A stretch of 64,000 bases of DNA from an uncultured Muribaculaceae bacterium (GTDB taxonomy: Bacteria; Bacillota_I; Bacilli_A; RF39; UBA660). Both the position numbers and the translations under genes were made by a program. This document shows positions 47,737-53,735 of the stretch, piece by piece (position 1 is the stretch's first letter; each line of letters opens with the position of its first letter). The DNA lies in assembly GCA_964494015.1 (NCBI GenBank), contig CAZBQC010000001.1:7551-71550 (forward strand). Direction: 5' to 3'. Below the pieces are notes generated by a model that was given only the letters and a program-made list of their open reading frames with translations, was not told where the DNA came from and did not search any database.

Positions 47737-50700
47737 GTGATTATTTTGAAAAAAAGACAAGTTTTAATTTTTAAGTTTAAACGCTTTCTTACCAATATTA
47801 AAGAAAAAAGAATAATCCTATCAATTATTTCTGTTTTGTTGTTGATAGGTTTAGTTATTGGAGTCAGTTATGCCATCTTAGAATACCAAACTAATAAATC
47901 AGTCGATAATTTGTTGACAACGACAGTTGGTGAATTATCGATAACTTTTTCTTCTAATAGCAATACCATTGCCCTTGAAAATGCTCAACCGGTGTCTGAT
48001 CAACAGGGGCTTCTACAAGCTCCATACACTTTCACGGTTTCTAGTTCGAGCTCTTATGATGTTTATTTTGTTGTTAAATTAAATGAATTTTATTATAACA
48101 GTAGCACCCATGATGATACAGGGTTACAGTTTCCAGATAACACTTTGAAAATAAATGTCGATAATGGTACTTCATCATCGACGAATTATTTGACTAATAG
48201 TTATACTGTTGTTGACGATACGATTCCAGGTCAAGGTACACAAAACAAAACCTATTCAATTAGAATTTGGATCGATGAAAATGCTGGTAGTGAGGTAAGT
48301 GGTAAGCATTATCATGGTCGAATCGAACTGATTAATTCTCACAGCGATCAATTAAGTTCACTAGTACAATATAATTTAAAGAATAACTTATTTACTCCTG
48401 CAGAGGATACTGAACAGACTTTTATTGTCGGAACAGCTAGCGACGATAACTATGAACCGAATAATTACTTATGGTACAGTGGCAAAATGTGGCGAATCCT
48501 AGCTTTAAATAAAACAGATGGAGCAGTGACATCCATTAAAGTAATTACTCAAAACTTAATGACAGCTACGTTTAGAAATGGAACGGTTGAAAATGGTGGC
48601 AGTGGACTAAGTTCTATATACGAAAATAGTTATATGTATCAATGGTTGAATGAAGATTTTTATGATACCTTAAGGAGTCCAACTAATTTTGTTGTGACCA
48701 ATTACTTGTGGAATGCCACACAAACTTCAAGTGTTAGTAAACCTCTTAATACGACGATGGTAGCTGGTAATGTCGGATCATTAAATCTTTACGAGTACGT
48801 CAAGAGTTATACAAATACTACCGCAGCTAACGGCTATTTAAATCTTAGCTATAATTGGTGGTTGATAAATCCACACCCTACAACCGACTGGGCCAATTTT
48901 GTTGATTCTAATGGTTATATTGGTAGTGATATTTTTTCCAATATATTTTCAATTCGTCCAGCGATAAACTTAAAACCCAATCTGCTTGTAGTTAAAGGGA
49001 ACGGAACGAGTTCTAATCCCTATCGATTAGAAGGAGATAACGATGAAGAAGAAGATTTACTAAACGATAATTTAAACACTAGGTATAGTGGGGAATATGT
49101 CAGATTTAATAATGAGGATTATCGAATCATGAAAATAGAAGGAAATCTTACTAAAATTGTCAAAGTTGATTATCTTAAATCATCAGGTGAAAATTTATCA
49201 TTAGCCTATGCTTCCGGCAGTAATTATTTATATTCTTCTTCCATCTCTGGCGGTACTAGTTATTGGGGAGGATACTTAAATACTACTTGGTATGATGGTT
49301 TATCTACAAGTGATAAAAACATGGTTGAAACAGGAACTTGGTATTCAGGGGTGGTTACTTTAAATACCAGTTATAAAAAAAGTATTTGCGAGACAGTGGC
49401 TGTTGGAACTTTAACGAGTACTTGCGGTAAGACTACCTTATCGACCACGGCCAAAGTCGGTCTTATTAGATTAGGAGAAATGTTTTCAAGTCAACTTGGT
49501 GATATTGGAAGTGCAGTTAATTTTCGACTACTGACTCCATACTCAACGAGTGGTTCGGTTTTTTTGAACCAAAATACGGCAACAACGGCTACTTCTGCGG
49601 TTACTACTTCTTATGCCACCAGACAGACTTTGTATTTAAAATCCAATGTAAAAATAGTTAGTGGAGATGGTACACCTGATAATCCATTTATTATTGAAGG
49701 TCTATCAACAATTCTAGATAAAATTAATTCAGATCTAAGTAGTAATTTATATACCCCATCTGGTGATACTGATCAAACTTTTATTGTCGGAACAAGTAGT
49801 GATACAAATTATAAGCCAAATAATTATCTATGGTATAGTGGCAAACTATGGAGAATTGTGGCATTAAATAAAACTTCCGGGGTGGTAACTTCTGTAAAAA
49901 TAATAACTCAGAACTTAATGTCAGGTTTTTATCGTTCCAGTTCACAGTATGACTTGGTATATTATGGAAGTTATATGTACCAATGGTTTAAGGAAGATTT
50001 TTATGATACATTAAGAAATCCGACTAACTTTATTGTTACTAACTATCTGTGGAATGCTACCGCAGTTACGAATAGTAATAAACCACCTACTACAACAATG
50101 GTAGCTGGTAATGTTGGGTCCTTAAATGGCTATGAATATGTAAAGTCATACACTAATACCACCGCTGCCAATGGCTATTTAAATCTTGGTTGTTACTGGT
50201 TTCTAATAAGCCCGGAGTCTGGTAGTTCAAATGGTATCTGGAGTGTCAGTACTACTGGTGCATATTCTTCGTATTCAGCATCTAATCGATTTTCAATTCG
50301 TCCAGCCGTCAATTTAAAAGCCGATTTATGCATTGTGAGTGGAAATGGGACAAGTACTAGTCCTTATCGTTTAGAGGGAGATAATGATCAAGAGGTTGAT
50401 TTATTAAACGATGGTTTAAATACGAGGTACAGTGGAGAATATGTCAAGTTTGCTGGTGAAGATTATCGAATTATGAAAGTAGAAGGCAGTCTAACTAAGA
50501 TCGTCAAGGTTGATTATCTTAAGTCGGAAGGAACAATTGTAACTAAGGCTTTTGCTGCCAGTAGTTCTTTATATTCAGCTTCTATTTCTGGTGGAACTAA
50601 TTATTGGGGAGGGTATTTAAATACAACCTGGTACGGTAGCTTAAGCACAGATTATCAAAATATGATTGAAACAGGGACTTGGTATTCAGGAACGGTAGGT

Positions 50701-51042
50701 TCGCAGGCAAGTTATAAATTAAGTATTTGTGCCACTGTAACAACCGGAACTTTAACAAGTACTTGTACTAGGACGACTGTATCAACTACTGCTAAAATCG
50801 GATTAATTAGGTTAGGAGAAATGTTTTCCAGTCATCTTGCTATTAGTGGAGAAGCTGCTAGTTTCCGTTTATTAACTCCAGATTCAAGCAGTACTGTCTT
50901 TTATGGACCCACTAATGCCAACATATTTACCGGTGCTGTTACTACTGCTTATGCTACAAGACCGACATTCTATCTTAAAGCAGGTGTCTATATTACTGAC
51001 GGCGACGGCACACCTAGCAATCCTTTTACCATTGCTATGTAA
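47737..51042 (+). CDS. Large N-terminally anchored surface protein built from two tandem ~440-aa repeats.
   Basis: A TM helix at residues 25-47. Repeat 1 (~48350-49690) and repeat 2 (~49690-51040) share LYTP..DT[ED]QTFIVGT.SD.NY.PNNYLWYSGK.WRI.ALNKT.G.VTS.K.ITQNLM and the remaining sequence at ~75% nt identity. Confidence 0.55.
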   Translation: MIILKKRQVLIFKFKRFLTNIKEKRIILSIISVLLLIGLVIGVSYAILEYQTNKSVDNLLTTTVGELSITFSSNSNTIALENAQPVSDQQGLLQAPYTFTVSSSSSYDVYFVVKLNEFYYNSSTHDDTGLQFPDNTLKINVDNGTSSSTNYLTNSYTVVDDTIPGQGTQNKTYSIRIWIDENAGSEVSGKHYHGRIELINSHSDQLSSLVQYNLKNNLFTPAEDTEQTFIVGTASDDNYEPNNYLWYSGKMWRILALNKTDGAVTSIKVITQNLMTATFRNGTVENGGSGLSSIYENSYMYQWLNEDFYDTLRSPTNFVVTNYLWNATQTSSVSKPLNTTMVAGNVGSLNLYEYVKSYTNTTAANGYLNLSYNWWLINPHPTTDWANFVDSNGYIGSDIFSNIFSIRPAINLKPNLLVVKGNGTSSNPYRLEGDNDEEEDLLNDNLNTRYSGEYVRFNNEDYRIMKIEGNLTKIVKVDYLKSSGENLSLAYASGSNYLYSSSISGGTSYWGGYLNTTWYDGLSTSDKNMVETGTWYSGVVTLNTSYKKSICETVAVGTLTSTCGKTTLSTTAKVGLIRLGEMFSSQLGDIGSAVNFRLLTPYSTSGSVFLNQNTATTATSAVTTSYATRQTLYLKSNVKIVSGDGTPDNPFIIEGLSTILDKINSDLSSNLYTPSGDTDQTFIVGTSSDTNYKPNNYLWYSGKLWRIVALNKTSGVVTSVKIITQNLMSGFYRSSSQYDLVYYGSYMYQWFKEDFYDTLRNPTNFIVTNYLWNATAVTNSNKPPTTTMVAGNVGSLNGYEYVKSYTNTTAANGYLNLGCYWFLISPESGSSNGIWSVSTTGAYSSYSASNRFSIRPAVNLKADLCIVSGNGTSTSPYRLEGDNDQEVDLLNDGLNTRYSGEYVKFAGEDYRIMKVEGSLTKIVKVDYLKSEGTIVTKAFAASSSLYSASISGGTNYWGGYLNTTWYGSLSTDYQNMIETGTWYSGTVGSQASYKLSICATVTTGTLTSTCTRTTVSTTAKIGLIRLGEMFSSHLAISGEAASFRLLTPDSSSTVFYGPTNANIFTGAVTTAYATRPTFYLKAGVYITDGDGTPSNPFTIAM

Positions 51043-51059
51043 CAAATATTATATTTTTG

Positions 51060-51088
51060 TTGACATTGTCATATAATATGTGTATAAT
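51060..51088 (+). promoter_or_regulatory. Consensus sigma-A promoter of the infC-rpmI-rplT operon.
   Basis: TTGACA (51060-65), a 17-nt spacer, then TATAAT (51083-88). Confidence 0.6.
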
Positions 51089-51094
51089 TATCAT

Positions 51095-51240
51095 GTAAAT
51101 TTAAAAAGAAAGAGATTTTTATCCACCCGATTATGAATAGTAATGGGTCAAAAGCTTGTTTTAAAATATTATTTTAATATTTAATAGGTTTTTAAGTGGA
51201 TAGAGATATCCACTTTTTAATTATTTTGGAGGTGTTTTAT
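51095..51240 (+). promoter_or_regulatory. infC leader with terminator/antiterminator geometry. It is a candidate L20-responsive attenuator.
   Basis: A 9-bp perfect hairpin AAGTGGATA gaga TATCCACTT (51194-51215) with a downstream U-run. An upstream ATCCAC (51121-26) could alternatively pair with GTGGAT (51196-51201). Confidence 0.45.
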
Positions 51241-51768
51241 ATAGCTGTTTCGAAAGGTAATTTGCTAATTAACGATCAGATCAAAGTTAGTCATGCCTTA
51301 GTTATCGGTCCGAACGGAGAGCAAGTAGGTGTCAAGTCAATCGGCGATGCTCTAACTTTGGCGTCTTATGCCAATTTAGATTTAGTGTTGATTAATCCAA
51401 CCGGTACGCCACCGGTCTGTAAAGTTATGGACTATAACAAGTATCGTTACGAAAAGTCGAAAAAAGAGAAGGAAGCTTTAAGACGTCAACGAGTCAATAG
51501 TGTCGAAACCAAAGAGTTTCGTCTTTCGCCTAATATCGATGTTGGAGATTTTGAAACCAAGATTAATAATGTTACAAAATACTTATTAAAAGGTGACAAG
51601 ATTAAGTTAACGATTAGGTTTAAAGGTCGTCAGTTGGCACACATCGATTTAGGGAAGGAAGTCTTAATTCGTTTTGCTAATCGCTTAATGGATATTGCTG
51701 AAGTTGTGGAAAATCCTAAGTTAGATGGTAAGAACATGTCAATGCTAATTTCACCGAAAAAAAAGTAA
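51241..51768 (+). CDS. infC: Translation initiation factor IF-3, probably starting at a non-canonical ATA codon.
   Basis: The IF-3 sequence begins (I)AVSKGNLLINDQIKVSHALVIGPNGEQ. RBS GGAGGTG (51228-34) is followed 6 nt later by in-frame ATA 51241. The only in-frame upstream NTG is GTG 51196, which lies inside the leader hairpin and has no RBS. Confidence 0.8.
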   Translation: MAVSKGNLLINDQIKVSHALVIGPNGEQVGVKSIGDALTLASYANLDLVLINPTGTPPVCKVMDYNKYRYEKSKKEKEALRRQRVNSVETKEFRLSPNIDVGDFETKINNVTKYLLKGDKIKLTIRFKGRQLAHIDLGKEVLIRFANRLMDIAEVVENPKLDGKNMSMLISPKKK

Positions 51769-51783
51769 ATAAGGAGGAGAATT

Positions 51784-51972
51784 ATGCCTAAATTAAAGAC
51801 TCATAAAGGAGTAAAAAAAGTTTTAAAAGTAAGAAAAGGTGGTACGATTAGTATCGGTATGCCAGGTGGAAGACATAATACTGGCAAAAAGAATGCGAAA
51901 GTAAATCGTAAAAAAAGAAAGGGTTCAGTATTAGCGCAAGCTGATCAGAAGAGATTAAAAAATTTAATTTAA
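51784..51972 (+). CDS. rpmI: 50S ribosomal protein L35.
   Basis: [20 protein letters not shown]... RBS AGGAGGAG. Confidence 0.9.
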
Positions 51973-51997
51973 TCGTCGTATAGAGGAGGAAAAAGAG

Positions 51998-52597
51998 ATG
52001 GCAAGAGTAAAAAACGGAGTTGTTACCAAAGCACGTCGTAAAAAGGTTTTAAAGGCAGCTAGTGGTTATTTTGGTAGCAAACATAGATTATTTAAGACCG
52101 CCAGAGAGCAATTGATGCATTCTGGCCAATATGCTTTTCGTGATCGTAGACAAAAGAAAAGAGAATTTAGAAAATTATGGATTACGAGAATTAATGCTGC
52201 CTGTCGTGAAAACGGAATTAGTTATTCGAGATTTATTGAAGGATTAAGTAAGGCTTCTGTCGAAGTCAACAGAAAGATGTTGAGTGAGATTGCAATTAAC
52301 GATCCTAAAGCTTTCAGTGAATTAGTGAAGGTAGCAAAAGATGGTAAAGCCGGAAAAGTTAAAAAAGAAGTTGAAAAACAAAAAACGGATCAGGTAGTTA
52401 AAGAAGAAGTTAAAGTCGAAAAACCAGTTAAAATTGAAAAGAAAGTAACGATCAAAACGAAAGTTACCAAAGAGAAAGAAAGTATCGACTATCGTAAATT
52501 GACGGTAGCTGAATTAAAAGAATTAGCTAAAAAGGCTAAAGTCGAAGGCTTTTCAACCATGAAGAAAAATAAATTGATAGAAAGTCTTCAAAAATAA
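51998..52597 (+). CDS. rplT: 50S ribosomal protein L20 with a ~80-aa K/E-rich C-terminal extension ending in a Rho_N-like motif.
   Basis: The L20 core [19 protein letters not shown]...[14 protein letters not shown]. The tail ends [32 protein letters not shown]. Confidence 0.88.
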
Positions 52598-52621
52598 ACA
52601 TATTAATGGATTTAAATGCCT

Positions 52622-52650
52622 AGTGCTTGAGTTCTCAAGTGGTGTTTATT
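52622..52650 (+). terminator. Terminator after rplT.
   Basis: GCTTGAG tt CTCAAGT hairpin followed by GGTGTTTATT. Confidence 0.45.
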
Positions 52651-52688
52651 AGAAATTAATAGAAGATTAAACGAAAAGGAGAAGAAAT

Positions 52689-53735
52689 ATGACTGTTATT
52701 TCAATGAGTTATTTATTAGAAGCAGGTGTTCATTTTGGACACCAAAAGAAAAGATGGAATCCAAAGATGAAGGAGTATATCTTTTCATCACGTGATGATA
52801 TTTATATTATCGATTTACAAAAGACGGTTAAAAAGCTAGAAGAAGCTTATACTAAGTTAGAAGAAATTACTAAGAATGGTGGCAAGGTTATCTTTGTTGG
52901 AACTAAAAAGCAAGCTAAAGAAGCGGTCGAAGAATGTGCTAACCGTACAAAGATGTATTTTGTCAGTGAAAGATGGTTAGGAGGAACTCTAACTAATTTC
53001 AAGACCATTAGAAGCCGAGTTAGAAGACTTGAAGAAATCGAAAAGATGGAAAAGGATGGTATTTTTGAAATTCTACCTAAAAAAGAAGTATCTTTATTAA
53101 ATAAAGAATATCAGAAGCTTAATCGTTATTTAAGAGGAATTAGAGACATGGAAAAACTTCCTCAAGCAATGATTATTGTCGATCCACAAAAGGAATTAAA
53201 TGCCATTCATGAAGCTAAAAAGTTACATATTCCCGTCGTTGGACTGGTCGATACTAATGGCGACCCGGATTTAGTCGATTATGTCATTCCTGGTAATGAT
53301 GATGCTGTCAGGTCAGTCAAACTAGTGTTAGGTGGCTTAACTAATGCCATTGCTAGTGTCAATGGCAACGAAGTCATCGATTATGTAGTTGAAGATGAAA
53401 AAGGTGCTAAAAAAACTAAGGTTCATGAAAGTAAAGAAGAGTCTGTTTTAGTTGAAGAAGTGATAACCAAAGAAGAAGTAAAAGAAGAAATTAAAGAAGA
53501 AATTAAAGAAGAAATTAAAGAAGAAATTAAAGAAGAGGTTATCGTTAACGAGGAAGTACCAGTAGCTCCTAAAAAGACCAGAGTTAAAAAAGAAGTAGCG
53601 AAGAAAGAACCAGAAATATCTCTTAAGAACCTTTCTAAGATGAATATTACTGAATTAAAGGCTCTTGCTAAAGAAAAGGGTATTAAAGGTTATTCTAAGT
53701 TAAAAAAAGATGAATTAATTAAAGAATTAAAATAG
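52689..53735 (+). CDS. rpsB: 30S ribosomal protein S2 with a ~95-aa acidic/basic C-terminal extension ending in a Rho_N-like motif.
   Basis: The S2 core [27 protein letters not shown]. The tail carries (EEIK)n and ends [29 protein letters not shown]. Confidence 0.9.
53484..53531 (+). repeat. In-frame 12-nt tandem repeat, four perfect copies.
   Basis: The unit GAAGAAATTAAA encodes EEIK repeats inside rpsB. Confidence 0.85.

Follow-up and report, generated by a model that had tools for sequence, protein, structure and literature searches.

The closest described counterpart of the locus analyzed here is the leader of the infC-rpmI-rplT operon in Bacillus subtilis (Choonee et al. 2007, PMC1865079), a transcription attenuator for which folding energies of -16.9 versus -15 kcal/mol and read-through by default have been reported. 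L20 binds this leader where helices 1 and 2 meet (PMC1865079), and according to the same source termination is triggered by L20 and not by metabolites. The L20 leader as published has several characteristic components: (i) three pairing elements, (ii) a non-conserved fourth stem preceding the terminator, and (iii) two strictly conserved As before helix 1 (PMC3849166, PMC1865079). In Escherichia coli, the L20 operator is located between infC and rpmI and acts on rpmI translation (Guillier et al. 2002; cited in PMC3849166 and PMC1865079); it has two helices and two unpaired As, and mimics the helix 40/41 junction of 23S rRNA. Another mode of control, translational autoregulation by IF3, acts on E. 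coli infC, which starts with AUU (Butler 1987; Sacerdot 1996; cited in PMC5499595 and PMC1865079). Non-canonical infC starts and the part they play in IF3 autoregulation are established in E. coli, and they have been noted for Gram-positive bacteria (PMC5499595, PMC1865079); IF3 autoregulation in B. subtilis is untested according to PMC1865079.

The locus described here occupies positions 51060-51243 of the window, that is, of the whole 64-kb stretch of DNA that was analyzed. It resembles the B. subtilis leader in the following features: (i) the operon is the same, and the site follows a sigma-A promoter and precedes the infC Shine-Dalgarno (SD) sequence, (ii) the AA motif, helix 1, helix 2, a variable stem, and an intrinsic terminator come in the same order, (iii) the antiterminator is more stable than the terminator fold (-32.9 versus -28.5 kcal/mol in the window), and (iv) infC has a non-canonical start codon. 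The likeness to the B. subtilis infC attenuator asserted in the initial annotation therefore extends to the place, the order of elements, and the energy ordering, from which we infer the role of L20. The two systems also differ. The leader is ~146 nt long in the window, with a clade median of ~152 nt, versus 201 nt in B. subtilis (PMC1865079); helix 1 has 3-4 bp here versus ~6 bp there; ysdA is absent, and rpsB-tsf come next instead; and L20 has a C-terminal Rho_N-like tail. With the E. coli L20 operator the locus shares the presumed effector and, by analogy, may share the logic of rRNA junction mimicry; however, the E. coli operator, as presented in the citing sources, acts on rpmI translation from within the infC-rpmI interval, whereas here that gap is 15 nt and termination is predicted upstream of infC. 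Like E. coli infC, the gene has an AUH codon in place of AUG, GUG, or UUG after an SD of good quality, and the clade as a whole keeps a non-canonical codon there; in contrast to the E. coli AUU, it is AUA here, AUC in most relatives, and never AUU.

Operon context, related loci, and promoter

The ORF list and Pfam matches around the leader give the gene order infC, rpmI, rplT, rpsB, tsf on the + strand, on which the parts of the promoter and leader also lie; the window is AT-rich, with a G+C content of ~32%. The infC gene (51241..51768) encodes a 175-aa IF3 that contains Pfam domains IF3_N and IF3_C and matches IF3 chains in PDB (E = 1.5e-50). It is followed after 15 nt by rpmI (51784..51972), which encodes L35 (Pfam Ribosomal_L35p), and by rplT (51998..52597), which encodes the presumed effector L20, a 199-aa protein with the domains Ribosomal_L20 (residues 3-109) and Rho_N (residues 164-197). 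In both L20 (tail at 52487-52588) and the 348-aa S2 protein encoded by rpsB (53631-53726), a Lys/Glu-rich linker leads to a C-terminal Rho_N (SAP-like) domain, for which Pfam gives E = 1e-6 and 7e-9, respectively. The L20 tail is present in all 70 relatives with a complete gene (170-210 aa). When the window was searched with an HMM built from L20 tails, no further ORF with such a tail was detected, and our search of the literature for ribosomal proteins with Rho_N tails yielded nothing relevant. The rplT-rpsB intergenic region (52598-52688) contains a hairpin, CUUGAG-UUCU-CUCAAG, at ~52625-52640 (z = -1.4), which is without a clear U-run and had no Rfam family match in a scan of the whole window; it may mark the end of the infC operon or form part of an rpsB leader.

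For comparative analysis we used 80 loci with 69-75% IF3 identity, obtained in a search with the IF3 protein of the window, and a leader alignment of 76 sequences. Nearly all of these loci come from uncultured gut 'Bacilli', 'Tenericutes', and 'Mycoplasma sp. CAG:877'-type metagenome bins. No rRNA was found by an Rfam scan of the window, nor in the related loci that were fetched. Three loci with the infC operon and leader of this clade (L018, L038, and L067) are filed under Acidaminococcus fermentans or 'uncultured Muribaculaceae' bins, which probably reflects binning errors in public assemblies.

The promoter of the operon is formed by the -35 hexamer TTGACA (51060..51065) and the -10 hexamer TATAAT (51083..51088) separated by 17 nt, as the initial annotation had described. 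This 12/12 consensus match is unique within positions 50000-53000, and the spacing from the -10 hexamer would place the transcription start near 51095. A TTGAC[AT]-type -35 hexamer with a 16-18 nt spacer, at a constant distance to the leader, was observed in 75 of 77 related loci, and the promoter, leader, SD, and AUH codon recur together in essentially all of the 80. The ORF upstream of the promoter (1101 aa; 47737-51042), by comparison, has a relative beside infC in 1 of 80 loci only. Since the promoter and leader are kept and the upstream ORF is not, the element belongs to infC and does not form the end of the gene before it. Two long repeats lie inside the 1101-aa ORF (e.g., LYTP..DT.QTFIVGT..D.NY.PNNYLWYSGK.WRI.ALNKT occurs twice), which may encode a variable surface protein.

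Leader architecture and relation to the L20 leader family

The putative operator is a 5' domain, AAAGAAAGAGAUUUUUAUCCACCCGAU (51105..51131), made up of invariant or nearly invariant columns of the 76 leaders. It includes the invariant AAAG at 51109-51112 and, in the relatives, aligns with the AAG...CCU portion of the RF00558 (L20_leader) consensus. Helix 1 (51112..51124) is short: G51112 pairs with C51124, and GAU (51114-16) pairs with AUC (51121-23) around a UUUU loop, 98.7% of the alignment cells being paired. It thus comprises 3-4 bp, insertions lengthening it in some lineages (GAUG/CAUC, UGGG/CCCA), and its pairs are invariant and hence give no covariation signal. Three other pairings were weighed for this helix. 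GGA/UCC and AAA/UUU were rejected, as both are lost in lineages with insertions (L001, L026, L038, L070), and GAU/AUC was chosen because it is invariant and is extended by these same insertions. Helix 2 (51125..51148), with strands ACCC-g-AUUAU and GUAAU-GGGU and the loop GAAUA, is 99.3% paired in its lower part and was found in every fold of the window leader. Two pairs of the lower part show compensatory changes in the 76-leader alignment; such changes were observed at columns 35/70 (UA, UG, CG) and 38/68 (UA, CG, GC, AU), as well as in the upper stem. The parts of the operator differ in their support: AAAG is invariant and helix 2 covaries, whereas the presumed L20 contact surface is the least supported part, since helix 1 has only 3-4 bp, lacks covariation, and is unmatched by Rfam. 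The variable stem (helix 3; 51150..51193), located directly 5' of the terminator, is present in all folds of the window leader, changes in length and sequence among the relatives, and fits the non-conserved fourth stem of the published L20 leader (PMC3849166).

The terminator hairpin (51194..51215) was detected by a terminator scan and has a folding energy of -10.5 kcal/mol. Its 9 bp are formed by the arms AAGTGGATA (51194-51202) and TATCCACTT (51207-51215) around a GAGA loop, and TTTAATTATTTT follows; the U-rich tract UUUAAUUAUUUU (51216..51227), a CUUUUCUUAUU-type tract in the relatives, leads to the SD GGAGGTG (51228..51234), which is invariant in the 76 aligned leaders, including the would-be synonymous sites. 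The initial annotation was correct in placing a perfect 9-bp hairpin with a U-run between the promoter and the ribosome-binding site and mistaken in having it abut that site, as 12 U/A-rich nt lie in between. In one related locus (L005, 2950-3000), the SD is set off from the leader terminator by an additional ~45 nt, which indicates that the two need not adjoin. Over the 76 leaders the terminator comprises 11 pairs, with 97.9% of cells paired and five pairs changed on both sides; structure rather than sequence is therefore conserved upstream of the infC SD, which is a membership feature of the L20 leader. The sequence UCCA at 51122-51125, which also occurs in the terminator 3' arm, is complementary to UGGA (51227-51230) at the 5' edge of the SD, and RNAalifold predicted pairing of UCC (51122-24) with GGA of the SD. 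These pairs are invariant or nearly so, and covariation is thus uninformative either way; the pairing was left out of the model. It might account for the conserved U before GGAGG.

In the minimum-free-energy fold, the antiterminator 5' strand (51115..51126) pairs with 51196-51207, that is, with the 5' arm and loop of the terminator. The 5' strand covers the interhelical junction, which is the L20 site in B. subtilis, and uses up helix 1 and two basal pairs of helix 2. An upstream ATCCAC copy had been proposed in the initial annotation to sequester the terminator 5' arm; this copy is present at 51121-51126 and does pair, but as part of a 12-bp duplex rather than by itself. The unconstrained fold of the whole leader is the antiterminator fold at -32.9 kcal/mol, versus -28.5 kcal/mol with the terminator enforced, and the antiterminator duplex alone has an energy of -15.7 kcal/mol versus -10.5 kcal/mol for the terminator hairpin alone; the leader fold has z = -2.8 versus shuffles, and this value and the recurrence of the elements in the relatives exceed chance expectation. 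When the nascent RNA extends to 51206 and the terminator 3' arm is not yet made, the antiterminator is its best fold. The antiterminator (columns 24-33 with 139-148 in the 76 leaders) comprises 10 pairs, of which four are changed on both sides, with 93.2% of cells paired. Folding thus bore out the terminator/antiterminator geometry noted at the outset, with two mutually exclusive folds that both show compensatory changes.

Pairing falls to 27-58% in slid registers. Because the shuffle and permutation controls ignore phylogeny, significance is overstated by their counts: 0 of 500 shuffles gave covariation scores as high as those of the terminator, helix 2, and antiterminator, and 0 of 5000 permutations reached the observed mean duplex energy of 5' domains with their own terminator arms, to which they bind better than to the arms of other genomes (means of -12.99 and -11.62 kcal/mol, respectively). 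The duplex-energy test copes with the register-shifting insertions of the L001, L038, and L048 groups. A single architecture is common to all informative relatives; its elements are, in order, the promoter, AAGGAAAG-N-GAU...AUCC as helix 1, ACCU-G-AU...AU-AGGU as helix 2 (GAAUA-type loop), a hairpin that varies, the terminator and its CUUUUCUU tract, and the SD.

Comparison with Rfam was made at gathering and relaxed thresholds. RF00558 had no match in the whole window at gathering, and none on the window leader at E <= 10 in the two ranges tried; the matches obtained there, such as Plastid-clpP (E 0.3-0.7) and rimP, were all at chance level and were taken as noise. The gathering score of 58.7 bits, an operational cut-off and not a biological feature, was likewise reached by none of 20 relatives. 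At relaxed thresholds, 8 of 13 relatives had sub-threshold RF00558 matches that span the full model (1-127 of 127), lie on the correct strand, and coincide exactly with the leader, with scores of 26.5-40.8 bits: L026 (40.8), L009 (39.5), L011 (37.2), L070 (33.8), L063 (33.4), L001 (32.0; E = 8e-5), L048 (27.1), and L038 (26.5). The best E value in a second relaxed run on the relatives was 1.4e-4. The AAG motif, helix 2, and the terminator are aligned in these matches, and the 6-bp helix 1 of Rfam is skipped. A covariance model, R1, built from 75 relatives with the window left out, matched the window at 51099-51223 with 84.9 bits (E = 4e-15), and its next-best match in the 64 kb had 17.9 bits. 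The R1 match places the window leader in the family of its clade, and the sub-threshold RF00558 matches of the relatives identify that family as a divergent L20 leader homologue. Thus, the Rfam scan proposed in the initial annotation failed to detect the window, whose homology to RF00558 is traced through full-length sub-threshold matches in its relatives. On this sequence evidence, the assignment of the leader as a divergent L20 leader homologue with a shortened helix 1 is supported.

Two other readings of the leader deserve consideration. A genuine terminator/antiterminator switch could be set by a signal other than L20, such as a different protein (L35 and IF3 among the candidates), a small molecule, or the rate of transcription or translation alone. 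Such a reading would suit the reduction of helix 1, which belongs to the L20 site of B. subtilis, to 3-4 bp unmatched by RF00558, and the failure of the window leader to match the Rfam model altogether; yet the AA(A)G motif, helix 2, and the element order do align with full-length RF00558 in 8 of 13 relatives, rplT lies within the operon, and the B. subtilis precedent has termination responding to L20 and not to metabolites (PMC1865079). We regard a non-L20 signal as unlikely. It is most improbable that the hairpin merely terminates the 1101-aa gene upstream, or serves as a stabilizing structure, with a fortuitous complementarity of 51115-51126. The hairpin does lie 150 nt past the stop of the upstream ORF, and chance hairpins are common in AT-rich genomes, four terminator-like sites being found in 3 kb versus 1.6 expected. 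However, a perfect conserved promoter sits between that stop and the hairpin, the leader is retained in relatives although the upstream gene differs in 79 of 80, and the antiterminator partners co-vary.

The infC start codon

The SD GGAGGTG of the window is followed by the 6-nt spacer TTTTAT and by ATA (51241..51243), which shares the frame of the IF3 ORF (end at 51768); in this, the initial annotation was accurate. The aligned codon in the 80 relatives is ATC (60 loci) or ATA (20 loci), ATG, GTG, TTG, and ATT being absent. A distance of 5-7 nt separates it from the invariant GGAGGTG, GCN comes next, and ATC and ATA alternate inside several sub-lineages. The two codons between the SD and the AUH codon are hypervariable and include TGA in L026. 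The usual infC start elsewhere is ATT. ATT makes up 61% of the Ile codons in the long ORFs of the window and 74% of the internal Ile codons in infC of the relatives, and its complete absence from the AUH position thus indicates a constraint that ordinary Ile codons do not have. A possible reason for shunning ATT is that, together with the following G (always G in 81 sequences), it would give an out-of-frame UUG start.

The protein comparison agrees with this assignment. In alignments with IF3 chains from PDB, codon 22 of the GTG-started ORF corresponds to residue 3 of the best 171-aa chain, and Pfam IF3_N starts at residue 10 of the ATA-started protein (9 codons downstream of ATA); an ATA start therefore gives a normal 175-aa IF3. 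As for the initial claim that the frame has no plausible ATG, no in-frame ATG does occur before codon 63; the claim is incomplete in that TTG 51226 and GTG 51232 are in frame, both inside the SD. GTG 51232 was rejected as a start on account of this position, and TTG 51262 was ruled out on comparative and spacing grounds.

Two further start sites were weighed against ATA 51241. A canonical in-frame codon 15 nt upstream (TTG 51226; ATG in most relatives) would make IF3 five residues longer (MEVFYIAVSK...) and turn ATA/ATC into an internal Ile codon. An in-frame ATG or TTG is indeed found at this position in the window and in 76 of 80 relatives, and almost all loci have U before GGAGG, though the anti-SD complement would be A. 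The -15 codon, however, overlaps the SD and is preceded only by a U/A-rich tract without an SD; GGAGGTGTT is invariant at would-be synonymous sites, whereas the next six bases are hypervariable; and ATT is missing at the AUH position despite its 61-74% share of ordinary Ile codons. Moreover, the frame from the -15 codon is broken or absent in four loci, owing to indels in L010 and L059, GGG in L016, and a stop in L026, and all four retain AUH at SD spacing. Initiation at -15 is, in our judgment, quite improbable. Less probable still, to the point of being hardly credible, is a start at GTG 51196, the first ATG, GTG, or TTG codon of the open frame and the beginning of the 190-aa protein in public gene calls, the exact product of which is found in the public protein collection. 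This GTG is located inside the terminator 5' arm without an SD, and the extension it implies is not conserved: an in-frame stop occurs no more than 24 nt upstream of the AUH codon in 24 of the 79 relatives with a locatable stop, and an in-frame, open counterpart of the GTG exists in only ~18 of 80. The extension also has no counterpart in solved IF3, alignments beginning at codon 17-25 of the GTG-started ORF. From these comparisons, ATA 51241 is the best-supported start of infC and very probably the true one.

Proposed control of the operon and its significance

We consider it probable that 51060-51243 comprises the promoter, the leader, and the start of an infC-rpmI-rplT operon with two feedback layers, namely attenuation by L20 and control by IF3 at AUA. 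In the proposed mechanism, the ~146-nt leader would fold either as an intrinsic terminator (51194-51215 with the U-tract) or as the more stable antiterminator, in which 51115-51126 would pair with the terminator 5' arm and loop at 51196-51207. The antiterminator 5' strand would double as the 3' side of helix 1 and as the helix 2 base, the two helices together constituting the operator. By homology with B. subtilis, free L20 in excess would bind at the junction of these helices; the bound protein would lock the operator and block the antiterminator, and the terminator would then halt transcription short of infC. Once ribosome assembly uses up L20, the antiterminator would form first and the operon would be read through. 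L20 is reasonably likely to be the effector of the leader, by analogy with the described attenuator, and termination at the leader hairpin would be expected in vivo. In the second layer, IF3 synthesis would be initiated at AUA 51241, 6 nt past a strong SD, and IF3, by discriminating against such codons as it does for the AUU of E. coli infC, may repress its own synthesis. In a variant of the L20 layer, the clade would have pared helix 1 down to 3-4 bp while L20 gained its C-terminal tail, which might contribute to leader recognition or to termination; the result would be a modified L20/operator pair and not a mere replica of the B. subtilis arrangement. This variant seems doubtful to us and has a low probability.

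These results bear on annotation of both the gene and the leader. The public gene call starts at GTG 51196 inside the terminator hairpin and adds 15 spurious residues to IF3, and the resulting 190-aa product is the sole version of the window's IF3 in the public collection (NCBI and Logan sources); the infC starts of this clade are probably mis-called by gene finders systematically. RF00558 at its curated threshold misses the leader in the whole clade, and the 76-leader alignment together with R1 could broaden the L20_leader family to take in a large uncultured group of gut Bacilli. The evidence supports a divergent new member, carried by an uncultured lineage, of a regulatory family that has been described before; the principle is already known and will not surprise a specialist. 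For the organisms themselves, it would mean that small AT-rich genomes have retained both layers of infC operon control, L20 attenuation and a non-canonical IF3 start.
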